The translations under genes and the position numbers were made by a program. The notes below the pieces were generated by a model. The model was not told where the DNA came from and did no database searches. It saw nothing but the letters and a program-made list of their open reading frames with translations. This document shows positions 21,106 through 63,101 of a stretch of DNA of 64,000 nucleotides, piece after piece. The stretch's first letter is position 1; each line of letters begins with the position of its first letter. Source of the DNA: Bacteriovoracaceae bacterium UBA4573 (lineage in GTDB: Bacteria; Bdellovibrionota; UBA1018; UBA923); contig DGKJ01000053.1 in the NCBI GenBank assembly GCA_002387735.1, positions 4,129 through 68,128 on the forward strand, in the 5' to 3' direction.

Positions 21106-21183
21106 TGGGGTGATCGAGGGGTCTCGAACCCCCGACCTTCGGGACCACAACCCGACGCTCTAACCAACTGAGCTACGACCACC
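21106..21183 (-). tRNA. tRNA-His (anticodon GTG) with genomically encoded G-1 and 3' CCA
   Basis: Folded manually from the reverse complement GGTGGTCGTAGCTCAGTTGGTTAGAGCGTCGGGTTGTGGTCCCGAAGGTCGGGGGTTCGAGACCCCTCGATCACCCCA. The 7-bp acceptor stem is preceded by the extra G-1:C73 pair typical of tRNA-His. D-stem GCTC/GAGC, anticodon stem TCGGG/CCCGA with loop TTGTGGT, and T-loop TTCGAGA are all present. Confidence 0.9.
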
Positions 21184-27439: not shown

Positions 27440-27455
27440 TTATTTACATGAGTGC

Positions 27456-34810: not shown

Positions 34811-34902
34811 TAATAATCCTTTAATATCATATGGTTATGCATGAATTAATTTTGACTAAAATAGTATGACTTTAGTCGGCCCAGCCATATATAATAGAAG
34901 GG

Positions 34903-36624
34903 ATGGTGGGGGAATTCGTCAATCGGATTCGAACGGGGCCGCGTTTTGCGTTGCTCCTTGTAATGGTCTTCACGCCGGTGCTTTTTTGCGCCAAGGCCGG
35001 TGCAGAAATTCGAGCTTGCGAAAAGGAACCCCGAAAAATTATTCCGGGCTTTGACGAATCAGAAGCTCGAGTGCGTGCCCGTATCGATGCTGGCGAGACG
35101 GTTGACTTGGCTGGACTTGAAGCCTGTTCCGCAAAAATTCAAAACTGTGCAACCGATCTTTCACCGATTTCAATTGAAACAGTCGAATTGTTCAAAAATT
35201 TTTCACTCTCCAAAACATCAAAAAAAATGGTGACCGGCAAATTCAAAAAAGAAACCAGAGAAGCCCTCGATAACGGTGACGATCTAATTAGTTGCGACCG
35301 CGACGGTCTAGCCGCGCGTACCGCGGCAGCAGTTGCTATCGCCAGCGCGGCAGTTCAGGCCGAGGAAGATCTTGAGGCCTTAAAAGCCGACCGCATCGCG
35401 GACGAAAAAGAGCGACTGCGGCTGGCTCTAATCGCGTCACCACTGATGTGCCGAGATCTCGAAGAGTTTAATGAACTAGCGGGGATCTCCGCGCAGGTCG
35501 ATGACTTTCAGGATCGAATAGTAGAAGAAGCCGCGGTGCTTGAAGTGGTTTACGGTATGTGCAAAGGGCTAAAAACCGCATCTTCCAAATGGAAAAGATC
35601 GCGGGGTAAAAAGGGCGGATTAGATCTTGAACGAAAACTTCTCGCTTCTTTGCGAGCGCATTCAGATTTACCTAAGTTCGCCCTTTACGAAAAGTGGCCC
35701 GGTTGTCCGTGTGACAAAGACAAGTCGAGCCGTAAGATCAAAGGGGTTTGTTTCAAGGGGCTGACCCCCTATGATCCGATCGACGAACGAGTACCGCAGT
35801 TGCTCGAGCGATATGCAGAAAAACTTCAGGCCTGGGCAGTGGCCAATGGTATGACGCTCAGTTCGGTTCAGATGGGTGGTTGCTCCTTTGCTCGTCTGGC
35901 GCGTGCCGGCGGTCATGAAGACGGAACATTCGATCATAGTGATATCAGTTCTCACGCCGAGTCGAGTGCGTGCGATCTGTACAGTGCCACTTTCGAAGAG
36001 ACGGTAAAGTCGGGTAAAGATCGAGTTAAAACTAAAACCAAAACGGTTAAATTTTTTGACCTACGAAGTAGGAAAAGAAAAAAAATTCAGTCACACCCTT
36101 TTGCAGACGCGTTTCAAAAATATTTAAATTGGATGGATAAAGAAAAACCATTAATCGAGCGAATGGCATTTAAGCGTCATGATGTGGAATTAAAACGCGA
36201 AATAGTGAAACGGGTAAATAGTTCGAAAGATCGCACTAAAGGCAAACACCACGATATTGAAGAAAAAAAATCGAAGAGCCGAATTCCCGAGGCGATTTAT
36301 GACTACCGAAAATTGGCCGATGAGCTGGAAAAAAATGGTTGTCCGCTAAAAGATGAAAATTCCTGCGATCAACTGCGCTTGGGATTTCTTTTAATAAATG
36401 CAGGACGCGATGTAGGGTTTCTCACGATTGCCCCCGGTGTCGGCAGTCACGATGGCCACGTTCACTTAGGTGCTTCGCCCGACGAACAAGACTCTCTTCG
36501 TTTGACCAGCGGGTTGATGCCCACCGAGTGTCACGATAAACTTATCGACTACTACGTGATTCGAGCCGCCGGCCTTGAACTGCCGTACCCGCAGTGCGCC
36601 GAGCGCTTTAAAATGTCTCGTTGA
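34903..36624 (+). CDS. Exported protein with C-terminal LAS-superfamily (M15/M23-like) zinc-hydrolase motifs; putative cell-wall peptidase
   Basis: 573 aa with signal peptide. A charged/coiled N-terminal half is followed by H338-x5-D344 and SSHAESSACD (nt 35914-35976), resembling SxHxxGxAxD. A downstream HVH (SHDGHVH, nt 36445-36465) resembles HxH. Confidence 0.4.
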   Translation: MVGEFVNRIRTGPRFALLLVMVFTPVLFCAKAGAEIRACEKEPRKIIPGFDESEARVRARIDAGETVDLAGLEACSAKIQNCATDLSPISIETVELFKNFSLSKTSKKMVTGKFKKETREALDNGDDLISCDRDGLAARTAAAVAIASAAVQAEEDLEALKADRIADEKERLRLALIASPLMCRDLEEFNELAGISAQVDDFQDRIVEEAAVLEVVYGMCKGLKTASSKWKRSRGKKGGLDLERKLLASLRAHSDLPKFALYEKWPGCPCDKDKSSRKIKGVCFKGLTPYDPIDERVPQLLERYAEKLQAWAVANGMTLSSVQMGGCSFARLARAGGHEDGTFDHSDISSHAESSACDLYSATFEETVKSGKDRVKTKTKTVKFFDLRSRKRKKIQSHPFADAFQKYLNWMDKEKPLIERMAFKRHDVELKREIVKRVNSSKDRTKGKHHDIEEKKSKSRIPEAIYDYRKLADELEKNGCPLKDENSCDQLRLGFLLINAGRDVGFLTIAPGVGSHDGHVHLGASPDEQDSLRLTSGLMPTECHDKLIDYYVIRAAGLELPYPQCAERFKMSR

Positions 36625-37366
36625 ACAACTCTTTGCAGAAACCAGATTTTCGATGGGCGTCGATCGCCAGGCGAACGCTTCGCGCGAATGATTTTGCTAA
36701 TTCAGGGTGGTCCATAAAAATTTTTCTCAGACTTCTGGATAATTCGATCTGAACGCCCTGTTGCGCGGTTCGATTGACAATATTTCGCGGGTGCATTCCC
36801 GCAAATTTTCTAGCTTCTTCCCACGGTAAAATGTGAAGGCTTGGCATGGTTCGTTCTGCGAAGTCCTCTAGACGAGCCGCGATTTTATCTCGCAATAAAC
36901 TGTTTTGACCGCCCAAGATCACAGTGGCCCGTTCATTTTCTATTGGGTTTCCGAACCAGTAAAACCCGTGCACGCTCACGCTAGTGGAGGCTCGTTCGAG
37001 CATTTCAAGGGCTCGGGGTTCGTCGAACAAAGTGCTGGGAACATGGTGATCCCAGGCCGGTTCTTCGGGAAGAAGGGATTCAAACTTATACAGCGAGTGT
37101 TCGCCGCCGGCTATCAAGTCGGCGAGTTCCGACGTGCCTGGTTCGATATTACCGCCGTGAATTGCGAGCACTAAAATTGGCGACCGTCGCAAAATAGCCG
37201 CAACTCGAAAGTCGCGGTCTTCGGTGAATTCTTTTCGTAGTTCAAAAAAACTATCGAATCGATCGATGTGGTTTCCGTGAGTATTGTTCGCATAGGCGGC
37301 TCCGCCGGCCACCAAAAAGGTAGCAGCAAATGTGTAAATTTTTCGAAGAGTAATATTTACCGACAT
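36608..37366 (-). CDS. Poly-gamma-glutamate hydrolase family (PF05908-like) protein, exported
   Basis: 252 aa with signal peptide. LAIHGGNIEPGTSELADLIAG matches the HGGxIExGT signature I recall for PghP/YjqB-type gamma-PGA hydrolases. Confidence 0.5.
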   Translation of the reverse strand: MSVNITLRKIYTFAATFLVAGGAAYANNTHGNHIDRFDSFFELRKEFTEDRDFRVAAILRRSPILVLAIHGGNIEPGTSELADLIAGGEHSLYKFESLLPEEPAWDHHVPSTLFDEPRALEMLERASTSVSVHGFYWFGNPIENERATVILGGQNSLLRDKIAARLEDFAERTMPSLHILPWEEARKFAGMHPRNIVNRTAQQGVQIELSRSLRKIFMDHPELAKSFARSVRLAIDAHRKSGFCKELFNETF

Positions 37367-38118
37367 TAAGACCGATCTAATAGAGGTCGCAGAATTGGGA
37401 AATATAAATCTTCTTCGAGCGGCATTCCGAGATTTGCGCGCCGATCCTCTTCTACGAAAGTGAGGGCAGTGCCATGAACCACCGCGAGTGGGCGCGGAAC
37501 GGTACCCTCGCCCATGGCGTAGACCGCAAGTCCCGCTAGCGCATCGACATGATTAATCTGCGTCATTTTAAACGGTCTTCCGTAAAGGTCGGGGGCGCCC
37601 ACCAGATTTTCGGTGGGTTCAAAGCCCCAGAACGACAAGCCGATTCCCGTAACTCCGCGGCGTAGCGGAGTGGTGTGAGAGTCAGTTAATATCACCCCTA
37701 GGTTTTTTAGACCCCAACGCTCGCGTAACTCTTGCCATAGTTTTTGGGCCGAGGCGTAGGGGTCGATCGGATAGAGAATATAAAAGTCGCCAGCAGCATT
37801 GCTCTCATCGATCCCTGCCGCCGGAATTAAAAGGCCATGCGCTACGGTGAGCGTGGTGTTGTAGCCGATGGTGCCAAGAAAGTGTTCACATTCTCGACGC
37901 ACCAAATCCTCTTTAGATGGTGCTTCGTCCTTCAGAAGAATTCTATTCTCGGCCAGAGAAACGATTTTCGAGGTGACGGCCAACACCATGTTTTCCCGCA
38001 CCAGGGAGCGTGGCACTTGGGTCGCAATGAAATCCGCCAAGTGACCACCAACAGCAAACAGAGGCGTTTCAACGGCTTGGACAGAAATGGCTGTAGAATT
38101 CGGTTTAGTAAGAGGCAT
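37366..38118 (-). CDS. CofE-like gamma-glutamyl ligase family protein (F420-0:gamma-glutamyl ligase fold, PF01996-like)
   Basis: 250 aa. VTSKIVSLAENR, GIDESNAAG and LTDSHTTPLRRGVTGIGL resemble CofE motifs. Its stop overlaps the downstream hydrolase start, and its start overlaps the upstream transporter stop. Confidence 0.55.
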   Translation of the reverse strand: MPLTKPNSTAISVQAVETPLFAVGGHLADFIATQVPRSLVRENMVLAVTSKIVSLAENRILLKDEAPSKEDLVRRECEHFLGTIGYNTTLTVAHGLLIPAAGIDESNAAGDFYILYPIDPYASAQKLWQELRERWGLKNLGVILTDSHTTPLRRGVTGIGLSFWGFEPTENLVGAPDLYGRPFKMTQINHVDALAGLAVYAMGEGTVPRPLAVVHGTALTFVEEDRRANLGMPLEEDLYFPILRPLLDRS

Positions 38119-38848
38119 TTTTCGATTTACCGACCCACTTCATCGCAGCGTACATCAGCGGCGTATCTAGGGTAGCAAGCAAGGTTTTTAATAAAAACGG
38201 CGGGACCATGGCTTTCATTAATTCGGGCGCTGGGAGTACTCCCGCCAGAAAAATTGTCATGAAAACGACTGTGTCGATAGCCTGGCCGACTAATGTAGAA
38301 ACATTTTTTCGAAGCCAGAAGTGGCGCCCCTCGGTACGTCTGCGAATGGCATGAAAAAGCCGTACGTCGATAAGCTGGGAAATTGTATAGGCCGTAATCG
38401 AAGCAAGCACCATACGGGGAGTTAGTGAATACATTGCCGCATAGGCTTCGGACAGGTCCCGGCGCGGTGAGGGTGGTAGCAAACCCCCAATTTCTACGAT
38501 CACAAGTGCGATGACTTGAACAAAAAGTCCGGTCCAAACCATGTTGGTGGCCGTTTTTGGTCCAAAGAGTTCTGACACAATATCGCAGACTAAAAAAGTA
38601 AGAGGAAACACCAGAATTCCGGCCGAAACCGTGAATCCGCCTACCATTACCAGCTTCGAACCGATCAGATTAGCGGTCACCAGTGATCCCGAAAAAACAC
38701 CGGCCAGGAGTGTGAGGGCAAAAGCTCTTTGGTCTGTCATGTGTGGGCCATCCATTAACTTAGAGGGTCGAGCGAGTTCAACTTTATCTTTTAAAGGGGA
38801 ATTGCTTGGGGTCCCTTGCGGTGTCCACCGGTATTTGATATAACGCAT
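38105..38848 (-). CDS. VUT/YhhQ-family (DUF165) queuosine-precursor-type transporter
   Basis: 247 aa and polytopic. ITAYTISQLIDVRLFHAIRRRTEGRHFWLRKNVSTLVGQAIDTVVF matches the YhhQ family. Confidence 0.65.
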   Translation of the reverse strand: MRYIKYRWTPQGTPSNSPLKDKVELARPSKLMDGPHMTDQRAFALTLLAGVFSGSLVTANLIGSKLVMVGGFTVSAGILVFPLTFLVCDIVSELFGPKTATNMVWTGLFVQVIALVIVEIGGLLPPSPRRDLSEAYAAMYSLTPRMVLASITAYTISQLIDVRLFHAIRRRTEGRHFWLRKNVSTLVGQAIDTVVFMTIFLAGVLPAPELMKAMVPPFLLKTLLATLDTPLMYAAMKWVGKSKNASY

Positions 38849-53255: not shown

Positions 53256-54347
53256 CTACTGACACTGGTATAAGTCTGTCATATTTCGACTGTCGAGTGA
53301 GCCTTGGTACCAAGCAATTGTTTTCGCAGATCTAGGACAGTCCACCAAATACATTTGGGTTACGCGGTTATATAGACCGAAACCGACGACCGCCTGTACA
53401 GTTCGATTCGAATTGCGTTCCCAAATCGGGTGCAATTCCCACTGCCATGGCCAAACGCCACCGCCAACTAAGGTTTGGGTAGAAACGGTAAAATCACCTG
53501 GTGCAGTTTCTGAGGCGAACAAATATTGTTGAGTATCAGCGACACGAATGGCGACTGGTTCCCCGTACACCAAATAAGGATCCGCGGGGTTTGGCGTTAA
53601 TTTTTCAAAAATTAAATTTGGTTGAAAGGTCTCCGAAAAGATCCAGTCGTCGTTTTGAATTTGTAACTGGCGATTCAAGTGAGAACTAAAATAAGTAGCG
53701 ATCTGAGATTTCAATCCACACGCTAGCGAAGAACTTCCAGTGCAAATGAGAAGCGCGGGTCTGGCCTTCCATGCGTTCCGAACGGCGGTGGCGAGACCGC
53801 TCGGGTTGGAGTCTTGAACCATGTTGATCGACCAGTTCAACGACGGGGTGTCGTTGGCACGATTGTACAAGACACCGAAATGAGGGCGCATGGCTTCCGC
53901 TCGCTGAATTGCGAAACTATTTTCCCAAGTGATCCGATAAGTCCAAGGTTCGTACGGCAAGGTCCATCGAATAGGTCGCCGAAAAAAATTTTCGTAGAGT
54001 GGTTCGAGCGCTAAAATGCGAGCTTTGTAGCCGTGTTTTCGTTCAATCGAAAGTGCGTTGTAGTTTCGAACAAGCTCTTCGGATTTTTCCGAAAGCACTT
54101 TTAGATGATCGGACCATTCAACGAAGGCCTCTGCGAGCGGAAGCCACTGTTGGTTGTTCGTCTGGGTTGAAGTTACGCGAACGTTGTCTAGTTCACCGTA
54201 TAAGCGGGATTCTTCTTCGAACAGCGCAGATAGATCATCGATGTTGTTGTAAATGGTCGGATCATGGCAGGCGTCGACTCCTAAGAAAACCGGAAGAACT
54301 GGCAGGAGTAAAAGTAGAAGTTTGGCGATGGGTTGAGAGTGTTTCAT
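53256..54347 (-). CDS. Hypothetical exported protein
   Basis: 363 aa with signal peptide LLLLLLPVLPVFLGVDA. Trp/aromatic-rich, no family recognised. Convergent with the preceding gene. Confidence 0.4.
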   Translation of the reverse strand: MKHSQPIAKLLLLLLPVLPVFLGVDACHDPTIYNNIDDLSALFEEESRLYGELDNVRVTSTQTNNQQWLPLAEAFVEWSDHLKVLSEKSEELVRNYNALSIERKHGYKARILALEPLYENFFRRPIRWTLPYEPWTYRITWENSFAIQRAEAMRPHFGVLYNRANDTPSLNWSINMVQDSNPSGLATAVRNAWKARPALLICTGSSSLACGLKSQIATYFSSHLNRQLQIQNDDWIFSETFQPNLIFEKLTPNPADPYLVYGEPVAIRVADTQQYLFASETAPGDFTVSTQTLVGGGVWPWQWELHPIWERNSNRTVQAVVGFGLYNRVTQMYLVDCPRSAKTIAWYQGSLDSRNMTDLYQCQ

Positions 54348-54418: not shown

Positions 54419-56125
54419 TCACCAACTTCGGGGGTCCGGATTATCAAGGCATGGATCTTTACCGTTGCTGCTAGCATGGGCGGCCCACTGAGCCATGGTA
54501 CGACCGGCCCAATGATCGTCCACGTCGCTTGACCAATTGTTTTTTCGAGCCAGTTCTAATTCTTGTTCGATTGATCGTACGGTCCACTGGTAGAGTCCGG
54601 GAGTAGCAGGGTCGGGCGAAGGTTCGCCCCAGGCGACCCAACGCACGCCTTGATCTTTCCAATATTTGCGAGGCGCGTGAATCGGGTTGTGAGTGCACCA
54701 GACAAAGCCGCGAGCTTTGGCTTTATATAGGTATAATAGCTCACTGCCACGCGAGCGAACTGTCATGACGACAAACGGGTGGCGTTCTGGAAACACTTGT
54801 TCATTCCAACCATGTAAATAATCAGGGGCCCTGGGGTCATTGATGCGCGCGGCGTAGGCTAGGTAAGGAGGGACTCCTTTGCGATAAGCGGTGCCGCACA
54901 CGGCAGTTACTAATACTGCGAGAGCAAGCGCCAACAGTCGGTGATGCTTATCAATGGTACCTAAAACGACTTCTGCGAGGAGAGCGAGTGCGATACCTGT
55001 CGCCAGTGCACGCCCTACGTCGAAGGGTAGAGCGTAGTATTCGTGTACGATGTAAACGGCCCAGAATAGAAACACGAACACAAAGAGCGCAATGCCATAG
55101 GGCACGGCGACTTGGGCGAATTTAAGAGCCCAAGCTTTTACGGGTCGACGAAAAAAAATCGAAAGTACAGCGAGGGCGGGTAATACGAGAAAAATGCCCG
55201 TTTGCTGGGCCCATTTGAGCAAATTGGAAGTGAAAAACTTTGGCTCAAAACGTTCACTCCAGTTCCCAAAATACCAACGAGTCGCTCTGGGCCCAGTATG
55301 CAATATCCAAGGTAGGTCCGAAGCTTGACCGAGTACGTGGCCCCAGGCAAGCCACCCCACTACGACCAGACTTCCGGTTCCCAGCGCCAATATGCCGCGA
55401 ACACTTGGTGCAATTCCCTGAATTCGCCAGCGAATGGCAAGAAAGACTGTCCAAAAAACAGCGAAAAATGCGAAGCCCTGCGGTTTGTGTACTCCGGTCA
55501 TCGCCCAAGCCGATCCGGCTATCAGAGGCCACACGTAGCGAGCCATTCCAGCTTTAGACCCCGCTTCGGTCCGCACACTCCCATAGAGTGCGACCAGAGC
55601 GAAGAACAACATTCGATTTTCGACCATTGTATACGTTGCATAGCGAAGCCAGAGCTCATCACACGCGAGTAAAAATACCGAAACCGCGCTCCCAATCAAT
55701 GCGAATGGAGTTGCAATCCCTACCAGCTGGGCGAGCGCAAAAGACAATGCGCCCAACACCAGTAGGCTTGCTGCCGAAAACCAAATGCTCACAGATTTTC
55801 CGATTTTTTCAACCGCGCCTTCGCATTCGGTTCCGCCCAGACCACGAGCAAGCACTCCCTGCAGCCATTCAAAACCCGTGTACTCGAGATTGAATGGATT
55901 GTTTCCGAAGTGAATTTGCGGTCCCTTTAAAATCGAATGAGAGGGATTGTGGCAATACATTCGTATGATTCCGGCGGTAAAACCCTGGCGCTCAGCGCTT
56001 CTTCCGCCAGAAGGCCGTTCAAAAGCTAAGGGGAGAGTAAGAAAAAGAAAAACCGCAGCACAACCCCAAGTCCAAAGTTGAGTGGCGAACCAAAGTTTGC
56101 GGTGTTCTTGATTGGAGTCTTCCAA
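54419..56125 (-). CDS. GT-C-fold polytopic membrane glycosyltransferase, paralog A (polyprenyl-P-sugar dependent, ArnT/PMT/ALG-like)
   Basis: 568 aa with ~11 TM and a C-terminal soluble domain. A DELW motif (LLACDELWLRY) in an early loop parallels DEIW in the adjacent paralog. Confidence 0.5.
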   Translation of the reverse strand: MEDSNQEHRKLWFATQLWTWGCAAVFLFLTLPLAFERPSGGRSAERQGFTAGIIRMYCHNPSHSILKGPQIHFGNNPFNLEYTGFEWLQGVLARGLGGTECEGAVEKIGKSVSIWFSAASLLVLGALSFALAQLVGIATPFALIGSAVSVFLLACDELWLRYATYTMVENRMLFFALVALYGSVRTEAGSKAGMARYVWPLIAGSAWAMTGVHKPQGFAFFAVFWTVFLAIRWRIQGIAPSVRGILALGTGSLVVVGWLAWGHVLGQASDLPWILHTGPRATRWYFGNWSERFEPKFFTSNLLKWAQQTGIFLVLPALAVLSIFFRRPVKAWALKFAQVAVPYGIALFVFVFLFWAVYIVHEYYALPFDVGRALATGIALALLAEVVLGTIDKHHRLLALALAVLVTAVCGTAYRKGVPPYLAYAARINDPRAPDYLHGWNEQVFPERHPFVVMTVRSRGSELLYLYKAKARGFVWCTHNPIHAPRKYWKDQGVRWVAWGEPSPDPATPGLYQWTVRSIEQELELARKNNWSSDVDDHWAGRTMAQWAAHASSNGKDPCLDNPDPRSW

Positions 56126-57574
56126 TTAATGTTCCTCGCTCAAAAAGGTGTGAATCTCATCGAGAGTGCAGCGATAAACGGCACCTTCATCTTCGACGGG
56201 CGAAAAAATAGTCCGCATCGGAATGCGGCGTTCTTTACACGGAGGATTTTCAGATCGACTAGTAACAACGTAATTGTAGTCGTGCGGATCAAGTCTTTTT
56301 CGTCGCAGATGATCACGGTCTATGGCGTAGGAATAGGGCAAGGGGCGGTGAAAGGTGTAATGGCCGCCCGAATAAATTCCATTCCATCCGTAAACAAGTA
56401 AACCGCGAACGTCAGTTTGGGCGCCCACCCAGGTTTCGAGTACTGAGGGAGTTTGATAATCATTCCAGCGAGTTTTTTTAGATCCACGCCAGGCGGCGAA
56501 CGATAAAAATAGCGTTAAAATTAAAACAAGAACTTGTCGGCGATACTGCCATTTCGTTGTTTCAAACCAGTATTGTAACACGAGGCCCGCTAGAGCCGCT
56601 CCCAGAACCGCGATGGGGTAGAAATAACGGTATTCTTTGTGGCCGAATAGAGTGTGGAGCAATAAAAGTGAAAGTGTGGCTCCCCAATACGGACGTAATT
56701 TTTTTGGTGAAAATGCGACTGCTAAAAAAAATAAAACGAATAGCGGTTCAGTCATGAATCGCCAGAGAAGTTCGAAGGCAAAGTAAAACGGTGTGACTCC
56801 ATCGCGGGCGGGCTTACCATCTATCAAATCAGCGTAGGCGTAGTGCAAAAACGGGCTGGTCCACTGGCCGTTGACCGCAGAGTTCAATAGCAAATCAAAT
56901 AATACGAAACCTAACCCCGCGACGAAAGCCCACTGAAATTTTCGGTATTGGCGGGTGAATAAAAACATTAGGCCAATCCAACCCAAAATTACGACGAAGG
57001 GGTATCGTAACGCACAGCTTAGTGCGATTAAACACAATCCCGCCATCAATTTACTGGGGCTTCCTTGGTCGAGCCAAACGAGTCCTACGAGCAGTAGCGG
57101 AAGCGCCAGCGCCGCAAGTTCGCCAAATGTTGAGTAACGTAAAAATTCTGGCGTAAGAAAAACGAAAAGGCCCGCCAACCAAGGCAGAGAACGCAAACCC
57201 AGTTTTCGTGCCACGGTCAAGATGAAATAACCCTTAGCCGCAAAGGTCACAGTGGCAAGCAAGATGCGCATAAGTGGCAAAACCACCTGACCGTCTGTGA
57301 GCCCCAGAGCATGGAATACACGCAGGATGGATCCGACCAAAAGTGGGGCTAACCAGCTTCGAACGCCTTGAACCCAGTCGACATCGAGTTCCCCGACGCG
57401 GTAAATCCAAGAGTAGGCTGGATTGAATGTTACCCAAATCTCGTCGACCCAGGCGCGGCTTTGAAAACAAAACGCGATCAAAACTTGCGCTGCGAATCCA
57501 AAAAGGCACACCGCTGCAAAGATGCGACTGCGTGATTGAAGCATATTTCTCAGAAATAATTTAATTGCTGCCAC
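56126..57574 (-). CDS. GT-C-fold polytopic membrane glycosyltransferase, paralog B (PIG-B/ALG9-like mannosyltransferase signature)
   Basis: 482 aa with 10 or more TM. An early-loop WVDEIWVTFNP motif resembles the DE-containing first-loop motif of Dol-P/Und-P-sugar-utilising GT-C enzymes. Its stop abuts the start of paralog A. Confidence 0.5.
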   Translation of the reverse strand: MAAIKLFLRNMLQSRSRIFAAVCLFGFAAQVLIAFCFQSRAWVDEIWVTFNPAYSWIYRVGELDVDWVQGVRSWLAPLLVGSILRVFHALGLTDGQVVLPLMRILLATVTFAAKGYFILTVARKLGLRSLPWLAGLFVFLTPEFLRYSTFGELAALALPLLLVGLVWLDQGSPSKLMAGLCLIALSCALRYPFVVILGWIGLMFLFTRQYRKFQWAFVAGLGFVLFDLLLNSAVNGQWTSPFLHYAYADLIDGKPARDGVTPFYFAFELLWRFMTEPLFVLFFLAVAFSPKKLRPYWGATLSLLLLHTLFGHKEYRYFYPIAVLGAALAGLVLQYWFETTKWQYRRQVLVLILTLFLSFAAWRGSKKTRWNDYQTPSVLETWVGAQTDVRGLLVYGWNGIYSGGHYTFHRPLPYSYAIDRDHLRRKRLDPHDYNYVVTSRSENPPCKERRIPMRTIFSPVEDEGAVYRCTLDEIHTFLSEEH

Positions 57575-57646
57575 AAGTCATTTTCCGCATGTTTAATGAG
57601 AGATGGGCCCATTGCATCATATCGGAGTTGATGAATCAATTGATCG

Positions 57647-58837
57647 ATGCTAACCCCTGTCTTTATGTCATCATCTTCGCCAATCGAACTCTCGATTGTA
57701 ATGCCCTGCCTCAATGAAGCCGAAACGCTCGAGGCGTGCATTAAAAAAGCTAAGAATTTTTTGGAGCGACACCAGATCGCCGGCGAAATTGTTGTTGGCG
57801 ACAATGGATCGACCGATGGGTCGCAACAAATCGCTGAACGATGCGGAGCTCGTGTAGTAAGCGTTCCGGTCAGGGGCTACGGCGCTGCACTTTATCATGC
57901 CACCCAAGCGGCTCGCGGCAGCTACGTCATCATGGGAGACTCCGACGATAGTTACGATTTTTCGGGGCTAATGCCGTTTGTCGAAAAACTGCGCGAAAAT
58001 TACGATCTAGTTATGGGGAATCGATTTTCCGGAGGCATTAAAAAAGGGGCAATGCCTTGGAAAAATCGGTACATCGGAAATCCTGCTTTGAGTGGAATCG
58101 GGCGGTTACTTTATAAGATTCCAGTTCGCGATTTTCACTGTGGACTACGTGGGTATTCAAAAAGCGCCTTTCAAAAAATGGACTTACATACCACTGGAAT
58201 GGAATTCGCCTCTGAAATGGTCATTAAAGCTTCGCTCAAAGGGATGCGCATAGTGGAAGTGCCGACCACCTTGCAGCCAGATGGGCGCTCGCGAGCACCT
58301 CATTTGCGCCCTTGGCGAGACGGCTGGCGCCACCTGCGCTTTATGTTGCTGTTTTCGCCCCGTTGGTTATTTTATTATCCGGGATTGGCGCTCATTTTAT
58401 CGGGCTTGCTGTTGGGAAGTTTGCTTGTCACTGGCCCGCTGGACATTGGTGGGATTCGACTAGATATTCACGCGCTGTTTTATTCCGCGATTGCAGTGAT
58501 AATCGGTTTTCAATCGGTTAGCTTTTATGCGTTAGCCCAAATTTCAGCAGTGCACAAAGGTTTGTTACCGGCCTCGAAGCGAATGCAGAAATTTTTAGAT
58601 CACTTTGTGATCGAAAAAGGTTTGGTCCTAGGCTTGTTGTTGTTCTTGGCTGGAGTCGTAGGGCTCCTGGTCGGTGTTGAGCAGTGGGGCCATTCCGAGT
58701 TTGCTAATATTGAACCGCGCCAAATGATGCGAATAGTGATTCCGTCAGGGTTGGCCGCCACGTTGGGTTTTAATATGATTCTTGCGAGTTTTTTCATGGG
58801 CGTCTTGCAGCTGCCGACGCGAAGGGAGCCAAAATGA
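57647..58837 (+). CDS. GT2-family polyprenyl-phosphate glycosyltransferase (ArnC/DPM1/GtrB-like) with C-terminal TM anchor
   Basis: IVMPCLNEAETL, VVGDNGSTDGS and DxD GDSDDS are present, with 2-4 C-terminal TM helices. Confidence 0.8.
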   Translation: MLTPVFMSSSSPIELSIVMPCLNEAETLEACIKKAKNFLERHQIAGEIVVGDNGSTDGSQQIAERCGARVVSVPVRGYGAALYHATQAARGSYVIMGDSDDSYDFSGLMPFVEKLRENYDLVMGNRFSGGIKKGAMPWKNRYIGNPALSGIGRLLYKIPVRDFHCGLRGYSKSAFQKMDLHTTGMEFASEMVIKASLKGMRIVEVPTTLQPDGRSRAPHLRPWRDGWRHLRFMLLFSPRWLFYYPGLALILSGLLLGSLLVTGPLDIGGIRLDIHALFYSAIAVIIGFQSVSFYALAQISAVHKGLLPASKRMQKFLDHFVIEKGLVLGLLLFLAGVVGLLVGVEQWGHSEFANIEPRQMMRIVIPSGLAATLGFNMILASFFMGVLQLPTRREPK

Positions 58838-60381
58838 AAGTCACCCTTGTTCAACCGCCGGCGTTAGTTGCGGTCGATAATTACTCCACCATTACGTTGC
58901 CCCCGCTAGGGATTGCCTACATTGCGGGCTATCTGCGAAGTCACCACCACGAGGTTACCGTGGTCGATGCGGTCGGTGCGGCCGTCCGAAAACTGGAACC
59001 ATGGCCCAAACGTAAGAAACGCCTTATTCAAGGTTTGAGTTTTGAAGAAATTTTGGAACGCATTCCCAGTGACACTCAGGTGATTGGTGTGACCTGTATG
59101 TTCACGCATGCCTGGCCAATGGTCCGTGATTTGTTGGCTGCGCTCAAAGAACGCTTTCCTAAGGCTTGGCTTGTTTGCGGAGGCGAACACATCACGTCGA
59201 TGCATCCAACCGTGCTCGAGCAGACGCCTGTTGATTTCTGTGTTCTGGGTGAGGGTGAGTATACCTTTCGAGAATTAATCGATTTGCTGGGCGCCGGCAA
59301 TCTTGAGCAGGCGCGCACAATTCAAGGCGTGGCTTACAAGAGTCAAGCGGGGCAAGTTGTTAAGAATGAACGCCGTCCACGCATTAAAGAAGTAGATAAC
59401 ATTCCTTGGCCAGCTTGGGATTTGATGGACCCCATGGCCTACAACGAAGCTGAGATTTATCAGGGGCCCCAAAGCAACGGAAAAACTATTCCGATGTTGG
59501 CCACTCGCGGATGCCCGTACCGCTGTACCTTTTGTTCCTCGCCCAACATGTGGACCCAACTGTGGAAGCCACGTGATCCGATCGACGTAGTTAACGAGAT
59601 CGAGTCGTACATGAAAAAGTACGGTGCTGCCGACTTTCAGTTTCAGGATCTTACTGCAATCGTAAAACGCGATTGGATACTAACTTTTTGCAAAGAAATA
59701 TTACGACGCGAATTAAAGATCACTTGGACTTTGCCTGCCGGTACGCGGTCTGAAGTTGTCGACGACGAATGCGCGAGTTACCTCATGCGTTCCGGATGCC
59801 AACATATTACTTTCGCTCCGGAGTCGGGTAGCCCAAGAATACTCGATCGCATTCAGAAACGAGTCGATTTAAACAGTCTCGAAGATTCTGCCAAGGCTTG
59901 TTTACGCAACGGCATGAAAGTCTGCCTATTTATTATCGTCGGATTTCCCTTCGAGGAAAAATCGGACATTCGTGCCACTTTCAAGTGGTTGCGCCACATG
60001 GCGCGTATTGGAGTTCATGAAGTGGCGACTGCTACTTTTGTGCCACTCCCTGGAACGCAGCTTTTTGGTGAGACTAGCGCGATTTCAAAAATCGAAGTCG
60101 ATGACGAGTACTGCCACTGGATGACTGCGGCTACCAGCATGTTGACGGTACGTTCGTGGAATCCTCGTTTTAGCGATCGCCAGATACTTTTTTATAAGCT
60201 CTACGCCATGGCTCAGTTTTACGCTGTATCGTATTTCTTTTATCCGAGCCGGGCATTTCGATTGATTCGCAATTTTATTTTGCACAAACAGGAAACCAAA
60301 GTAGACCGCGTTTTGCGCGAAATGGTGAACAAAACAGCAATTGTCTTAAAAACAAAGTTACTGTCAAAAAAAGCGTCATAG
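58834..60381 (+). CDS. B12-binding-domain radical SAM enzyme (class B; candidate methyltransferase)
   Basis: An N-terminal Rossmann-like B12-binding region is followed by the radical SAM cluster motif CPYRCTFC (CxxxCxxC). ATGA start/stop overlap with the GT2 gene. Confidence 0.8.
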   Translation: MKVTLVQPPALVAVDNYSTITLPPLGIAYIAGYLRSHHHEVTVVDAVGAAVRKLEPWPKRKKRLIQGLSFEEILERIPSDTQVIGVTCMFTHAWPMVRDLLAALKERFPKAWLVCGGEHITSMHPTVLEQTPVDFCVLGEGEYTFRELIDLLGAGNLEQARTIQGVAYKSQAGQVVKNERRPRIKEVDNIPWPAWDLMDPMAYNEAEIYQGPQSNGKTIPMLATRGCPYRCTFCSSPNMWTQLWKPRDPIDVVNEIESYMKKYGAADFQFQDLTAIVKRDWILTFCKEILRRELKITWTLPAGTRSEVVDDECASYLMRSGCQHITFAPESGSPRILDRIQKRVDLNSLEDSAKACLRNGMKVCLFIIVGFPFEEKSDIRATFKWLRHMARIGVHEVATATFVPLPGTQLFGETSAISKIEVDDEYCHWMTAATSMLTVRSWNPRFSDRQILFYKLYAMAQFYAVSYFFYPSRAFRLIRNFILHKQETKVDRVLREMVNKTAIVLKTKLLSKKAS

Positions 60382-60407
60382 TAAAAACAACGTTGGGGGG
60401 ATTTCGA

Positions 60408-61703
60408 ATGAAAAAGTTAGGACTACTTGGAGTCGTAGCGTTGATGAGCGCCTCTGGGGCGGCTCACGCAGTTGATACTTCGATGATCAAGTTTGAAGGG
60501 AATGCCCGGCTGAAGTATCAGTCCGACAATCGAGTCGATTACCAGAACAACCGTCGTTATACTCTATTGCGCGTTCGTCCTGGCATGACTGTCACGCCTA
60601 ATTCAAAAACTTCGCTTGTGATTGTTCCGCAGTTTGCAAAGGCCTTAGGGGAACCTACTCATATTAGTTCTTCAACAACTGCCAACACAGAAGTGTCAAC
60701 AAGCGGCAGTAGTTCGCTTGGTGCCCACGGTGAATTCGGTGTTTACGAGGCCTATGTCGGTTGGCAACCCTTGGGTTGGAGTGAGTTTTATTTTGGTCGC
60801 CAATCACTCAAATACGGTGACGGGCTGGTGATCGGCCAAGGGAACTGGGGCAATCATGGTCGTAGTTTCGATGCATTGAGAGCGCGGGCAAAGTATGGTT
60901 TGGGTTGGAGTGACTTATTGTTTTCGAAAATCAAAGAATACAACACGTCTGATTCTTCGACCATCGAGCGTGGCGACAAAGATCTCTGGGCTTTGTACAG
61001 TTCTTGGGATTTAGGACAGTATTTCAAAAATGTTGATCCCTATGTGTTTTACCAACGCGATCGATCGTCTTTTAATAGCGCGGTCAAAAGTGACCGCTAT
61101 ATTGCGGATCATCTGTGGACGGTCGGAGCCCGTCTCAGGTCGGACGTGGAGAAATTCGACTATCGTTTAGAGGTAAACAAACAATACACCTATTACACCG
61201 GAAAAGACGGTGTGCAGCTCAACGGAGATCAACAAAACGTAGAATTAGGTTACAACTTCGATTGCGAATGCAAACCGAGAGTGGCGGTAGAGTGGTTTAG
61301 GGCTTCCCGAAATTATCGGGAACTTTATCCGACAACTAACGAATTTCTTGGACGCGCCGACTTGTTTGGCCGAAGAAATATTATGGGATTCGGAATCAAG
61401 ACGTCGGGCTCGGCGGGGGATGATTGGAGCTGGGGCTTTGATTACTATAATTTTTCTCGCGAACGGAGCAGTCACACCGCTTATCGCACCAACGGAACCA
61501 CCTCGCTTGGTGGCGCGCAGTTGGGGGTTTCTAGGTTTTTGGGCCATGAGTTTGATCTAGGTTTGAAATACCAGGCTAACAAAAACCTGGATTTTAAGGC
61601 CGGTTATAACCACTTTGTGTCGAGCAAAAACTCCACGCTTCGCAAGTTGAATGGGTACACCCACGCCGGAATGGCGTTTTTGGCAATGGAGATGAAGTAC
61701 TAA
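60408..61703 (+). CDS. Outer-membrane beta-barrel protein (porin/alginate-export-like), putative
   Basis: Signal peptide MKKLGLLGVVALMSASGAAHA. Alternating beta-strand pattern, many Y/W/G, ends ..MEMKY. ATG 60408 with GGGGGG RBS is preferred. Confidence 0.45.
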   Translation: MKKLGLLGVVALMSASGAAHAVDTSMIKFEGNARLKYQSDNRVDYQNNRRYTLLRVRPGMTVTPNSKTSLVIVPQFAKALGEPTHISSSTTANTEVSTSGSSSLGAHGEFGVYEAYVGWQPLGWSEFYFGRQSLKYGDGLVIGQGNWGNHGRSFDALRARAKYGLGWSDLLFSKIKEYNTSDSSTIERGDKDLWALYSSWDLGQYFKNVDPYVFYQRDRSSFNSAVKSDRYIADHLWTVGARLRSDVEKFDYRLEVNKQYTYYTGKDGVQLNGDQQNVELGYNFDCECKPRVAVEWFRASRNYRELYPTTNEFLGRADLFGRRNIMGFGIKTSGSAGDDWSWGFDYYNFSRERSSHTAYRTNGTTSLGGAQLGVSRFLGHEFDLGLKYQANKNLDFKAGYNHFVSSKNSTLRKLNGYTHAGMAFLAMEMKY

Positions 61704-61871
61704 GCACCTGCCTTAACTTCAGGGTGCGTGGTGCGGGAGAGGTGGGCCCTTCTTCGAGGGCCTGCCAATTTGTCTTTAAACCGTCTAAAACTTAGACACT
61801 TTTCGTTTAGGCTAGCCTGGTTTGCTGCAGGGCTCCGACTGTGGTACCTCGTTTGCAACTTAGGAGGGTCT

Positions 61872-63101
61872 ATGAAGCACGCTTATCGTGGTTTTCGCGG
61901 TTCCTTAACGCTTTGTGCGGTTCTCGGTTTGATGGGGCCGTCGCTGGTTGTTCGCGCCCAGGAAGCTGATCCGGTCGTAACCCCGATTCTCGAAGCAGAC
62001 CCCGCGCCCGTCGCAGAGGCAGTGGCAAAGAGCCCCAAAAAGAAAAAGAAGGCGAAAAAACCGAAAAAATCGAAACGTAACACTGGCGTAGCCAGCGTGG
62101 AAATTCCACCCTCTGAACCTGCTGCGCCGGATGAGCCCGCGCTCAAAGACGCGACACCTCAAGAAATTCAGAAAATTTGTGCTGTGATGGAGCGAAAGAA
62201 ACGAGCCTCCTACGCGAAGTTCGAATCCGGTAAGGAACGGTTTGAGACTGAACGCAAATTGTACATGAAGAAGTTGGAGAAAGACTTAAACGCTGCATTG
62301 GCCCGCCCACAGCGGCTATTTACTAAGGCGATTGCGACTCTGTCTGAGGGCACAGATACTTCGAAAAATCAGGTTTCAGAGTTGGTAGAAATAATTCGAG
62401 CTTACGCTCACCCGGAATGGTTTGAAGGTGAAAATTCGTCATCTTATCGTGAGTTCGGTGAATTCATCGTCGAAGAAATTGCGATCATTGAAAAACAAGT
62501 TAGAAAAAATATTGATTCGAAATACTTTATCGATAGCGATGCACGATTAAAAGAGCAGGGCGTGCCATATCTTCGTGGCGAAACGGTCGATGTTCGTTTT
62601 TATCCGGCTGCCAAGTCTATCGGGGTGTCCGCGTGCGCTATGGATATCAATGATTTGTTGAAAGCCTATTTGAAAGGTGACACCAAGCCCCTCGAAACTT
62701 CGTTCTGGTGGAAAGGCTTCTCACAGCATCAAGAATTCAGGCCGTTGTGTATCAGAGTTGACCTCCCCGTATTAGACTTCGATCCGACTAAGGTTGATTT
62801 AAAGAGCGAGTTTAAAAAACGCTTGGAAAGCGCAATCAGCGAGGTTTCCGCCTGGACGCCGCCACCAGCTTATTACGACTCACTCGAAAAATATTTGGAT
62901 CATGTTTTGCCGAAGGTCTGTAGACCAAAGTCTGTCGAAAGTACGGAAGTATCCATTACGCCCGAGCCTGTGGAAACTCAGGCCGCCGGGGAAACACCAG
63001 TCGATGAGGCTACTCCGAACCAAGGCGAACAGCCGACGCAGGACAGTAGTGAAACCGGTGAAACTTCTGACAATAGTTCCGGTGATGACGTCGACCTATA
63101 A
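61872..63101 (+). CDS. Exported protein with Lys-rich (KKKKKAKKPKKSKR) segment and acidic Ser-rich C-terminus
   Basis: ATG 61872 with AGGAGGG RBS gives MKHAYRGFRGSLTLCAVLGLMGPSLVVRAQEA as signal peptide. No family recognised. Confidence 0.4.
   Translation: MKHAYRGFRGSLTLCAVLGLMGPSLVVRAQEADPVVTPILEADPAPVAEAVAKSPKKKKKAKKPKKSKRNTGVASVEIPPSEPAAPDEPALKDATPQEIQKICAVMERKKRASYAKFESGKERFETERKLYMKKLEKDLNAALARPQRLFTKAIATLSEGTDTSKNQVSELVEIIRAYAHPEWFEGENSSSYREFGEFIVEEIAIIEKQVRKNIDSKYFIDSDARLKEQGVPYLRGETVDVRFYPAAKSIGVSACAMDINDLLKAYLKGDTKPLETSFWWKGFSQHQEFRPLCIRVDLPVLDFDPTKVDLKSEFKKRLESAISEVSAWTPPPAYYDSLEKYLDHVLPKVCRPKSVESTEVSITPEPVETQAAGETPVDEATPNQGEQPTQDSSETGETSDNSSGDDVDL

Follow-up and report, generated by a model that had tools for sequence, protein, structure and literature searches.

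The window analysed here, a stretch of 64,000 nucleotides of DNA from an uncultured Oligoflexia MAG of the phylum Bdellovibrionota, carries two polytopic membrane proteins (P1 and P2) and a divergently transcribed GT2 enzyme (P3) side by side, which raises the question of whether these genes form a single glycosylation system and, if so, what that system decorates. An earlier note had read them as two paralogous GT-C transferases supplied by a polyprenyl-phosphate-mannose synthase, and had proposed a link with the lipid A of Bdellovibrio, which bears mannose. Its supposition that the organism is Bdellovibrio-like is correct for the phylum but not for the class, which differs from Bdellovibrionia.

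The three ORFs are real, and all of them encode glycosyltransferases. The back-to-back arrangement of the 568- and 482-residue proteins on the minus strand was described correctly, since the ORF coordinates agree (see the table) and the stop codon of P2 directly adjoins the start codon of P1, with a gap of 0 nt. The length given for the GT2 is that of its ORF; gene callers make it 378-390 aa. The spacer between the divergent genes is presumed to hold a bidirectional promoter region, a role assigned from the gene arrangement because a consensus sigma-70 scan of the spacer gave no match.

Features of the locus, in coordinates of the window
Feature	Position	Strand	Remark
363-aa secreted protein / possible lipoprotein	53256..54347	-	ORF, 71 nt downstream of P1
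P1, GT-C(A)-fold glycosyltransferase, 568 aa, undescribed family	54419..56125	-	directly abuts P2
P2, bacterial GT22 (ALG9/ALG12/PIG-B-like) GT-C glycosyltransferase, 482 aa	56126..57574	-	first gene of minus-strand operon
Divergent intergenic region between GT22 and GT2 start codons, 72 nt	57575..57646		coordinates and sequence
P3, GT2 polyprenyl-phosphate hexose synthase-like (DPMS/AglJ type), 396 aa	57647..58837	+	Pfam PF00535
B12-binding radical SAM enzyme, 515 aa	58834..60381	+	Pfam B12-binding and Radical_SAM
AlgE-like (Alginate_exp) outer-membrane beta-barrel, 436 aa	60393..61703	+	Pfam PF13372, 60.3 bits
Terminator-like hairpin	61741-61766		sequence scan

Family searches, which had been proposed as a check, placed two of the three proteins firmly. 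P2 is clearly a genuine bacterial member of GT22, the ALG9/ALG12 family, an assignment made from sequence and profile comparisons only, its AF2 model (pLDDT 46) being unusable. It scores 86.4 bits with the Pfam model Glyco_transf_22 (PF03901), whose cut-off is 23.8, and its family profile matches chicken ALG12 (9s6t, E 6e-11) over a span that includes the HKExRF region; overall identity to ALG9/ALG12 is too low for detection from a single sequence. In a 10-sequence alignment with identities down to 20%, residues D44, E45, H312, K313, E314 and R316 are invariant, the last four within the motif H312-K-E-Y-R-Y. The D44-E45 pair follows TM1 and is kept even in relatives of 20-25% identity which bear the canonical GT22 'PDE(I/H)FQ'; the DEIW of P2 is, as read from these alignments, the canonical GT22 catalytic motif of loop 1, and D44 and E45, in the first helix of that periplasmic loop, are the candidates for the catalytic acid. 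The C-terminal domain (about residues 365-482), with conserved C446/C469, is presumably periplasmic. In P2, Asp249 replaces the donor-orienting Asn of ALG9/ALG12 (HsALG9 N288, GgALG12 N247), which contacts the C2-OH of the donor mannose (PMC13503287).

For P1 the same searches yielded a single borderline, partial Pfam match to PMT, and no match to the Pfam PMT_2 model or to any NCBIfam ArnT model; neither a MIR domain nor the OST WWDYG motif was detected in it. Its nearest sequence relatives beyond its own family are PMT_2/PMT proteins. Its high-confidence structural model confidently predicts a GT-C(A) fold of the ArnT/AglB/PMT-like kind, with lipid A transferase ArnT as the best Foldseek match and about 11 predicted TM helices followed by a C-terminal periplasmic alpha/beta domain (about 430-568). 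E45 is likely to be the catalytic base, with the invariant E81, E86 and D270 close by. The C-terminal domain is invariant and includes the motif GWSSDxxDxW; the conserved Cys pairs of this domain and of loop 1 fit a location in the periplasm. The family comprises 19 strong matches among 1.84 billion representative proteins; the minority that bear an organism name are all MAGs, and none was found in that set from cultured Bdellovibrio or any other cultured organism.

If P1 and P2 were paralogues, as had been claimed, then their sequences or at least their family profiles should be related, and they are not detectably so: BLASTP between them gives E 0.096 without a real alignment, and comparison of the two family profiles gives a probability of 0.14%, as for unrelated GT-C families. 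The DE(L/I)W string that was thought to be shared in an early loop does occur, among the ORFs of the window, in these two proteins only, but the P1 copy (D156-E157) is predicted to lie after TM3, in the second periplasmic loop, and is variable, with D in 19 and E in 14 of 25 sequences. The weak profile register that exists sets 'DELWLRY' of P1 opposite 'PEFLRY' of P2 (142-147), not opposite 'DEIW'. Because the P2 copy is the loop 1 catalytic motif and the P1 copy is a poorly conserved element of loop 2, the likeness is best judged coincidental. The argument that two paralogous transferases imply two acceptor positions falls with the paralogy.

The third glycosyltransferase agrees with its earlier description as a divergent GT2 with a DxD motif and a C-terminal membrane anchor. 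It matches PF00535 with 92.5 bits. Its best NCBIfam scores, all short of the equivalog cut-offs, go to AglJ (121 bits), Dol-P-hexose transferase and PpgS. Among solved structures P. furiosus DPMS (5mlz, E 3e-11) ranks first, ahead of GtrB and ArnC. D98-S-D100 aligns with the D-A-D of the P. furiosus enzyme, about four C-terminal TM helices (about 247-387) are predicted, and a precomputed match to PF26629 GT2_TM_C is on record.

The GT2 stop codon overlaps the start of the radical SAM gene by 4 nt (ATGA), so that the two genes are translationally coupled. The radical SAM enzyme reaches no NCBIfam equivalog (169 bits versus 481 for BchE, 130 versus 578 for HpnJ), and among solved structures it comes closest to the sugar diol-dehydratase AprD4 (6fd2, E 1e-15); it is a candidate for tailoring the sugar or lipid-linked sugar. 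The porin gene starts 11 nt further downstream and may be the third member of the plus-strand operon; its product has no match among solved structures. An S/T/P-rich protein of about 409 aa is encoded beyond it. The porin gene was seen in the window species only (L001 and L002), because the remaining contigs stop short of its position, and the radical SAM gene only in that species and one close relative, so the operon membership of both is uncertain. Equally uncertain is that of the 363-aa protein gene, possibly the third of the minus-strand operon, whose product has an N-terminal hydrophobic signal-like segment and no Pfam or NCBIfam match, and which was not found beside P1 homologues in other lineages.

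All sequences compared are metagenomic in origin, and among them the linkage of the glycosyltransferases recurs. Of 13 distinct P1 loci, 9 have an AglJ/DPMS-like GT2 within about 4 kb of P1; the remaining four lie on contigs that are short or end near P1. A second GT-C likewise accompanies P1 in 9 loci, and the four contigs that lack one are too short to show it. This second GT-C is a GT22 alone in the window, L022 and L004, a GT87-like protein of about 600 aa alone in L005, L006, L009 and L013, and both in L024 and probably in the P0017 contig, where a neighbour of 612 aa gives no more than a faint DUF8201 match. As in the window, the genes for GT22 and P1 adjoin each other, or else overlap, in L004, L022, L024 and the P0017 contig. 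L022, a second lineage, keeps the head-to-head GT2 / GT22-P1 arrangement and the GT2-radical SAM overlap, with identities to the window of 84% for GT2, 91% for radical SAM (across the 154 residues present), 57% for GT22 and 60% for P1. In relatives P1 is linked to HddA-/GmhA-/HddC-like (GDP-heptose-type) or SDR dehydratase (deoxysugar) genes.

We regard it as rather probable, though well short of certain, that the locus is a two-operon divergent module for extracytoplasmic glycosylation, in which two unrelated GT-Cs act successively on one membrane-anchored glycan. To judge by its family, the GT2 would use a nucleotide sugar to load a monosaccharide onto polyprenyl phosphate on the cytoplasmic side of the inner membrane; the coupled B12-radical SAM enzyme might, more speculatively, tailor the lipid-linked sugar; the product would be flipped to the periplasmic leaflet, although no flippase candidate of GtrA, SMR or MATE type occurs in either operon; and P2 and P1, unrelated GT-C(A) proteins by fold and family, encoded by abutting genes, would use the flipped sugar as donor. 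The acceptor would most likely be one envelope glycoconjugate (glycolipid, lipoglycan or LPS-type) extended sugar by sugar, rather than two sites modified in parallel; genes of an acceptor pathway (LPS, O-antigen, capsule, PIM) were found nowhere in the window. Successive addition is suggested because a second, different GT-C usually lies near P1 and because the characterised GT22 enzymes, to our knowledge, all extend lipid-anchored glycans, so that precedent and co-occurrence would favour it over parallel action.

The earlier ArnC/ArnT-like logic, a polyprenyl-phosphate-sugar synthase plus periplasmic-face GT-Cs, is borne out by the family and fold assignments and by the recurrent proximity of the GT2 to P1; since both membrane proteins are GT-Cs with candidate catalytic acidic residues, its core idea survives. 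Precedents are the ALG9/ALG12 structures for mechanism (PMC13503287) and the three-component bacterial systems (PMC11127046). The latter, namely GtrA/GtrB/Gtr* of Shigella and Salmonella, ArnC/ArnEF/ArnT and PPRS/MATE/GT136 of C. youngae, likewise set a GT2-type synthase beside a periplasmic-face GT-C, and allow tailoring of the donor while lipid-linked, as by DprE1/E2; unlike them, the present cluster has no dedicated flippase gene, two different GT-Cs (GT22 and unclassified) instead of the usual one, a B12-radical SAM enzyme translationally coupled to the synthase, and no target-glycan locus nearby. P2 resembles ALG9/ALG12 in Pfam family, loop-1 acidic motif, HKExRF and C-terminal lumenal/periplasmic domain (PMC13503287), and the DPMS-like GT2 corresponds to the DPM1 that stands beside those enzymes, where several GT-Cs likewise work in series on one lipid-anchored glycan; unlike the ER-lumen enzymes, P2 is bacterial, has Asp249 for the donor-orienting Asn, and its acceptor cannot be Dol-PP-GlcNAc2Man(n). 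In mycobacteria, too, one synthase (Ppm1) feeds several distinct GT-Cs (PimE/MptA-C, of GT87 and related families) that elongate a membrane-anchored glycan, lipomannan, and the GT87-like partner of the relatives recalls these, but the window itself has no GT87-like member, the phylum is another, PIM pathway genes are absent and P1 has no actinobacterial counterpart.

The reading of the earlier note, in which the GT2 makes polyprenyl-P-mannose and each GT-C adds one alpha-mannose at the 1 or 4' position of lipid A after dephosphorylation, giving the neutral lipid A of the Bdellovibrio type, seems to us very unlikely. It can appeal to the phylum of the host, to the resemblance of P1 to ArnT in fold, size and C-terminal periplasmic domain, to the expectation that an inverting GT-C using beta-linked polyprenyl-P-Man would yield alpha-mannose, and to a literature search that found no paper assigning the Bdellovibrio enzymes. 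Characterised GT22 enzymes are mannosyltransferases (PMC13503287), and Francisella FlmF1 (GT2) with the ArnT-like FlmK (mannose, GalN; PMC2233673) is a precedent for lipid A mannosylation which, like RgtE with RgtD/RgtF and LpxE/LpxF in Rhizobium/Mesorhizobium (PMC7795004), has the synthase-plus-GT-C logic of the cluster. However, the known systems that exchange lipid A phosphate for sugar need a phosphatase, of the PAP2 type, together with an ArnT/PMT_2-family transferase (PMC7795004, PMC2233673); here P1 escapes the models for that family, P2 is a GT22, and no PAP2/LpxE/LpxF phosphatase or lpx gene was found anywhere in the 64 kb of the window or among 13 related loci, nor any LPS gene in the window or the related loci, which tells against lipid A as the target. 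Mannose as the donor is disfavoured by the heptose-type or deoxysugar genes that accompany P1 in relatives and by the Asp of P2 at the position that contacts the mannose C2-OH. We know of no GT22 that acts on lipid A. With the host in a different class, the P1 family not found in any cultured organism, Bdellovibrio included, and P1 and P2 not paralogues, the proposed link with the mannosylated lipid A of Bdellovibrio has no support.

Protein O-glycosylation, in which P1 as a PMT- or oligosaccharyltransferase-like enzyme, and/or P2, would modify secreted proteins such as the possibly co-operonic 363-aa protein or the S/T/P-rich one, is unlikely, if slightly less so. Secreted-protein genes do lie near the ends of both operons, and the C-terminal domain of P1 with its GWSSDxxDxW could bind an acceptor, but the PMT match is marginal and partial, the MIR and WWDYG signatures went undetected, the adjoining secreted proteins are not conserved beside P1 in other lineages, and the GT22 and GT87 precedents of which we are aware concern lipid-anchored glycans, not proteins. 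About as improbable as the lipid A reading is a division into separate units, GT2-radical SAM-porin independently making and exporting a modified glycolipid or polymer, and GT22-P1 drawing on a housekeeping polyprenyl-P-sugar synthase encoded elsewhere, so that the divergent arrangement would be incidental. The much higher conservation of GT2 and radical SAM than of GT22 and P1 between the window and L022 suggests different evolutionary constraints, the radical SAM and porin genes are absent from other P1 loci (L022 excepted for radical SAM), and pairs of GT2 and B12-radical SAM enzymes are known from unrelated lipid pathways, for example hopanoid HpnI/HpnJ, HpnJ being a weak match of the present enzyme. 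Against this, the AglJ-like GT2 stays beside P1 in most loci though other gene content differs, and the head-to-head layout is kept in the second lineage.

The cluster is a sound candidate for a system of cell-envelope decoration, and P1 represents a tiny, previously undescribed GT-C family, seen only in uncultured Bdellovibrionota.

Three genes were found by ORF calling at the positions from which the earlier note had read an ArnC/ArnT-like system, and that analogy is sound, in view of the families and fold of the three enzymes, which are established below, and of the conserved linkage of the GT2 gene to P1. The TTG start of P1, a GT-C-fold protein, directly abuts the stop codon of P2, a GT22 protein, and a 72-nt spacer separates P2 from the divergent gene of P3, a GT2, which is followed by the genes of a B12-binding radical SAM enzyme and an AlgE-like porin. 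Translational coupling is tight both between GT22 and P1 and between GT2 and the radical SAM enzyme. The GC content of the cluster region shows no anomaly, and promoter and terminator consensus scans and an Rfam search of the region returned nothing informative. Both operons are flanked by secreted proteins, of 363 and about 409 aa, which have no Pfam match and no homologue in the related loci, and which could be glycosylation targets. Elsewhere, the window contains an unusual gamma-glutamyl-related neighbourhood in which genes for a gamma-glutamyltranspeptidase, a poly-gamma-glutamate hydrolase-like protein, an F420-0:gamma-glutamyl ligase-like protein and a Vut_1 transporter lie in a run, as well as a PrkA-type serine kinase gene and a single tRNA gene.

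Coordinates of the genes and regions discussed, in the window and in related loci or contigs (L numbers)
Feature	Sequence	Position	Strand	Remark
363-aa secreted protein gene	window	53256-54347	minus	71 nt downstream of P1; signal peptide, possible lipobox
P1, 568 aa	window	54419-56125	minus	ORF, TTG start
P2, 482 aa	window	56126-57574	minus	ORF
D249 of P2	window	56830-56832		
P3 (GT2), 396 aa	window	57647-58837	plus	ORF
B12-binding radical SAM gene	window	58834-60381		start overlaps GT2 stop by 4 nt
AlgE-like outer-membrane barrel gene	window	60393-61703		11 nt after radical SAM gene
~409-aa secreted protein	window	about 61872-63101	plus	lysine-rich stretch, acidic S/T/P/E-rich tail
Gamma-glutamyl-related run	window	33095-38848		
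PrkA-type serine kinase gene, then ORF	window	26129-29648	minus	730 aa, then 436-aa ORF without Pfam match
tRNA-His (GTG)	window	21106-21182	minus	sole RNA gene detected in window (Rfam, ARAGORN)
Counterpart of window 54419-60381	L022	3-3901		
P1 + HddA-like region	L005	5938-9947		
P1 + HddA-like region	L006	5940-9876		
P1 + HddA-like region	L009	2431-6409		
P1 + HddA-like region	L007	53-4168		
P1 + HddA-like region	L023	322-1955		
P1 + HddA-like region	L011	304-1290		
~600-aa polytopic family	L005	4179-6002		
~600-aa polytopic family	L006	4202-5998		
~600-aa polytopic family	L009	614-2434		
~600-aa polytopic family	L013	12244-14100		
~600-aa polytopic family	L024	397-2184		
Transaldolase/FSA-family gene	L024	3611-4345		between GT22 and P1
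HddA-like kinase and GT22 genes	L014	8976-11404		kinase gene overlaps GT22 start by one base (translational coupling)

P2 matches the Pfam family Glyco_transf_22 (PF03901) with 86.4 bits, where the cut-off is 23.8, its residues 25-358 corresponding to positions 5-356 of the 414 in the model. Word-indexed homologue searches, even with a profile, found only three GT22 relatives, and searches of the solved structures with the single sequence and with the profile returned nothing before metagenomic relatives were added. Only once distant metagenomic GT22 relatives had joined the profile, in a 10-sequence alignment (A4) reaching down to 20% identity, did it match chicken ALG12 (9s6t; E 6e-11), with the 'GHKEYRY' of P2 aligned to 'PHKELRF'. 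The AF2 model of P2, built from a 3-sequence alignment, had a pLDDT of 46 and was therefore not used in the fold search. D44, E45, H312, K313, E314 and R316 are invariant in the ten sequences of A4; the first two sit directly after TM1, and the GT22 HKExRF motif is present in P2 as G311-H312-K313-E314-Y-R316. In distant members of the alignment the motifs have their textbook GT22 form, 'WPDEIFQ' or 'HPDEHFQ' together with 'GHKEYRF'. According to the 2026 structures of ALG3, ALG9 and ALG12, the GT22 catalytic base (HsALG9 D82, GgALG12 E35) belongs to the first helix of lumenal loop 1 (PMC13503287), and D44/E45 are, as judged by alignment, the candidate residues at this acidic position.

In the same structures the donor mannose is oriented by N288/H366 of HsALG9, which are equivalent to N247/H308 of GgALG12, with the asparagine hydrogen-bonded to the axial C2-OH (PMC13503287). 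The residue of P2 at this asparagine position is D249, and the assignment of mannose as the transferred sugar, which the earlier note had favoured, is left unsupported by this replacement of the residue that contacts the mannose C2-OH. Within A4, aspartate is also found at the position in P0020, a relative's protein 59% identical to P2, histidine in L004, and asparagine in P0021, L014, L015, L024 and L019. The change from asparagine to aspartate coincides exactly with the two lineages that have the four-TM GT2 and the B12-binding radical SAM enzyme, and it may signal a different donor sugar.

The HMM searches against GT-C and GT2 families that the earlier note had proposed place P2 in GT22 and P3 in GT2, but they leave P1 outside GT83 (PMT_2) and give it only a marginal and partial match to GT39. 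P1 has no PMT_2 (PF13231) match and no NCBIfam match at E <= 0.01, and PMT_2 is carried only by distant relatives outside the P1 family; the Pfam PMT match amounts to 23.6 bits against 22.7 and covers residues 109-235 (77-203 of 245 model positions), and the lumenal MIR domain that would accompany PMT in a GT39 enzyme was not detected by Pfam. Single-sequence and profile searches of P1 against the solved structures returned nothing. The AF2 model of P1, built from a 17-sequence alignment, has a pLDDT of 86 and a pTM of 0.89, and Foldseek ranks ArnT first among its matches (E 1e-6, TM about 0.5). About 11 TM helices, a long two-helix first periplasmic loop and a C-terminal alpha/beta domain at residues ~430-568 are seen in this model, and the predicted fold is that of GT-C(A) enzymes, with an N-terminal module of ~7 TM helices, a two-helix loop 1 and a variable C-terminal module. 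Nine acidic positions are conserved in 25 members of the P1 family: E45 (E/D), E81, E86, E106, D270, E362 (E/D), E522, D534 and D537. E45, which lies inside model helix 44-59, is E or D in all 24 sequences that cover it, and E81 and E86, also in loop 1, are invariant; the family thus has, in E45, the acidic residue expected in the first helix of loop 1 of a GT-C(A) enzyme, and its role would be catalytic. Both loop 1 and the C-terminal domain have conserved cysteine pairs in this family, a pattern which would fit a periplasmic location.

The two GT-C proteins had been taken for paralogues that share a DE[LI]W motif. Paralogy is not detectable (BLASTP E 0.096; profile-profile probability 0.14%), and what P1 and P2 have in common is the GT-C superfold only. 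The string itself is indeed confined to P1 and P2 among the ORFs of the window, but its two sites are not equivalent: the copy in P2 follows TM1 and appears from the alignment to be the catalytic motif, whereas the copy in P1 follows TM3, in loop 2, is variable (D in 19 and E in 14 of 25 sequences), and is paired in a weak profile register with 'PEFLRY' of P2.

P3 scores 92.5 bits against PF00535, and its best named relatives are AglJ, the haloarchaeal Dol-P-hexose transferase and PpgS, all matched below their NCBIfam equivalog cut-offs (AglJ 121/325 bits, DPhHxTase 86/375, PpgS 76/370), as is ArnC (27/529). The closest solved structure is the P. furiosus Dol-P-Man synthase 5mlz, on whose D-A-D the residues D98-S-D100 are aligned, followed by GtrB and ArnC. 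The C-terminus holds four hydrophobic helices (247-387) and a precomputed GT2_TM_C match. With its GT-A GT2 domain, DxD motif and C-terminal membrane helices, P3 has the predicted architecture of a polyprenyl-phosphate hexose synthase. The closest solved relative of the coupled radical SAM enzyme is AprD4, a sugar diol-dehydratase.

The neighbourhood of P1 was compared in 13 distinct loci, the window included; for the contig of P0017, a relative's protein, the content is that of called genes and precomputed Pfam matches only. A GT22 gene adjoins P1 in five of them (window, L022, P0017 contig, L004 and L024), and SDR dehydratase/epimerase genes do so in two, namely L013, which has an SDR pair with a GT2 and a methyltransferase, and L008, with one SDR visible. 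In the remaining six (L005, L006, L007, L009, L011 and L023), each a related lineage, P1 is divergent from the adjacent gene of an HddA-like GHMP kinase. An AglJ-like GT2 is located no more than about 4 kb from P1 in 9/13 loci, the other four contigs being short or ending near P1; the linkage between GT2 and P1 is therefore conserved, and a second GT-C often stands beside P1. The radical SAM and porin genes are not linked to P1 in the related loci, apart from the radical SAM gene of L022, a locus which has the same architecture as the window, the radical SAM and GT2 genes diverging from GT22 and P1. The identities between the two are 84% for GT2, 91% for the N-terminal 154 aa of the radical SAM enzyme, 57% for GT22 and 60% for P1, and this uneven divergence reflects either much faster evolution of the periplasm-exposed GT-Cs or an exchange of the GT2-radical SAM half.

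The HddA-like gene is followed, where the contig allows, by GmhA-like, SDR and HddC-like genes and by that of an AglJ-like GT2 of 250 aa, the HddA-, GmhA-, SDR, HddC- and AglJ-like matches all falling under the NCBIfam equivalog cut-offs. These heptose-type genes hint at a donor derived from GDP-heptose, which might be linked to polyprenyl phosphate; we know of no precedent for a heptose donor linked in this way. The transaldolase-like gene of L024 is a further link to sedoheptulose-7-phosphate metabolism. In L014 the HddA-like kinase, 63% identical to that of L005, is coupled to a GT22 protein 37% identical to P2, with no P1 homologue within 10 kb, and the pair is adjoined by an SMC gene, as likewise occurs in L006. 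GT22 and P1 thus seem interchangeable beside heptose genes. A polytopic family of ~600 aa, with the motif 'LPQQHSDPLYYHL' and 9-14 predicted TM helices, lies beside P1 in four loci without a GT22 gene (L005, L006, L009 and L013) and occurs alongside GT22 in L024. A Pfam scan of three members gave no significant match, the L024 member has a weak precomputed GT87 match, and the P0017 contig has a 612-aa neighbour with a faint DUF8201 match; the family probably represents a third GT-C partner that has not been described before.

Lipid A had been proposed as the acceptor. Known systems that replace lipid A phosphate by a sugar combine a PAP2 phosphatase (LpxE/LpxF), an ArnT-family GT-C (RgtD/RgtF/FlmK) and a GT2 synthase (RgtE/FlmF1) (PMC7795004, PMC2233673). 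A GT2 is linked to P1, as in ArnT/GT83 systems, but PAP2, lpx and ArnEF are absent from the window and from the related loci; Pfam searches of 55 window ORFs, which are all those of at least 150 aa except four, mostly overlapping longer ORFs, found no PAP2, lpx, waa, wzx/wzy or other LPS genes, and none were found in the related loci. The lipid A proposal is accordingly unsupported, P1 also lying outside the PMT_2/ArnT models. The characterised relatives of bacterial GT22 enzymes build the cores of eukaryotic N-glycans and GPI, and we know of no GT22 enzyme that acts on lipid A. Two other identities were considered: a Wzy-like or O-antigen-ligase identity of the polytopic proteins was rejected on the fold and family evidence, and membership of the HpnI/HpnJ type of hopanoid modification was rejected for the GT2 and the radical SAM enzyme, the HpnJ score being 130, where the cut-off is 578, and HpnI giving no match to the GT2.

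The distribution of the cluster bears on the same proposal. A protein named 'MAG TPA: Oligoflexia bacterium' has the same sequence as P2, Oligoflexia and Bdellovibrionia being separate classes of Bdellovibrionota, and the same cluster is present in sludge-bioreactor metagenomes. When 1.84 billion cluster representatives were searched with the P1 profile, just 19 proteins reached E <= 1e-30, the scores below them dropping sharply to generic PMT_2/PMT proteins, and the family members looked up are all metagenomic singletons or near-singletons. A stringent scan of 185,579 species genomes with two peptide patterns found seven loci, all in MAGs, labelled Oligoflexia, Bacteriovoracaceae, Bdellovibrionota, 'Deltaproteobacteria' and, once, WWE3, and no locus in Bdellovibrio. 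The scan and the exhaustive HMM search argue against a Bdellovibrio orthologue of P1, other than a very distant one. No assignment of the Bdellovibrio lipid A mannosyltransferases was found in the literature, and because the cluster is not traced to Bdellovibrio and has no lipid A hallmarks, it does not now make the question of lipid A mannosylation in that genus testable.

In the mechanism that we propose instead, the GT2 would load a sugar onto polyprenyl phosphate on the cytoplasmic side, this lipid-linked sugar would be flipped across the membrane, and both GT-Cs would use it in the periplasm. Since the GT22 and GT87 enzymes characterised so far lengthen lipid-anchored glycans, the two GT-Cs would most likely act successively on one and the same membrane-anchored glycoconjugate. 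More speculatively, the radical SAM enzyme might tailor the sugar, a precedent for the tailoring of a lipid-linked donor being DprE1/E2 (PMC11127046). The three-component GtrABV, ArnC-ArnT and GT136 systems, and Ppm1 with PimE/Mpt, work alike, but the window cluster differs from them in having two unrelated GT-Cs, one a GT22 and the other unclassified, a coupled B12-radical SAM enzyme, and no flippase gene: the interval 52.4-63.2 kb contains neither a small polytopic ORF nor a MATE gene that could supply a dedicated flippase (GtrA, SMR, MATE), and the EamA-family gene closest to the cluster is 15 kb away.

Taken jointly, these observations could be read as an ER-like periplasmic assembly line of GT22, P1-family and GT87-like enzymes run by uncultured Bdellovibrionota on an unusual polyprenyl-phosphate donor, tailored by the radical SAM enzyme here and a heptose or deoxyheptose in the relatives with HddA/GmhA/HddC-like genes, with the Asn-to-Asp change in P2 marking a donor switch and P1 founding a new CAZy GT-C family; that this whole combination is correct we consider improbable. 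If the module works by the mechanism proposed above, it would bring to light a new family of GT-C enzymes, known only from uncultured bacteria related to predatory ones, place bacterial GT22 enzymes in a functional context for the first time, and point to an unexplored donor chemistry, based on radical-SAM tailoring here and on a heptose pathway among the relatives.
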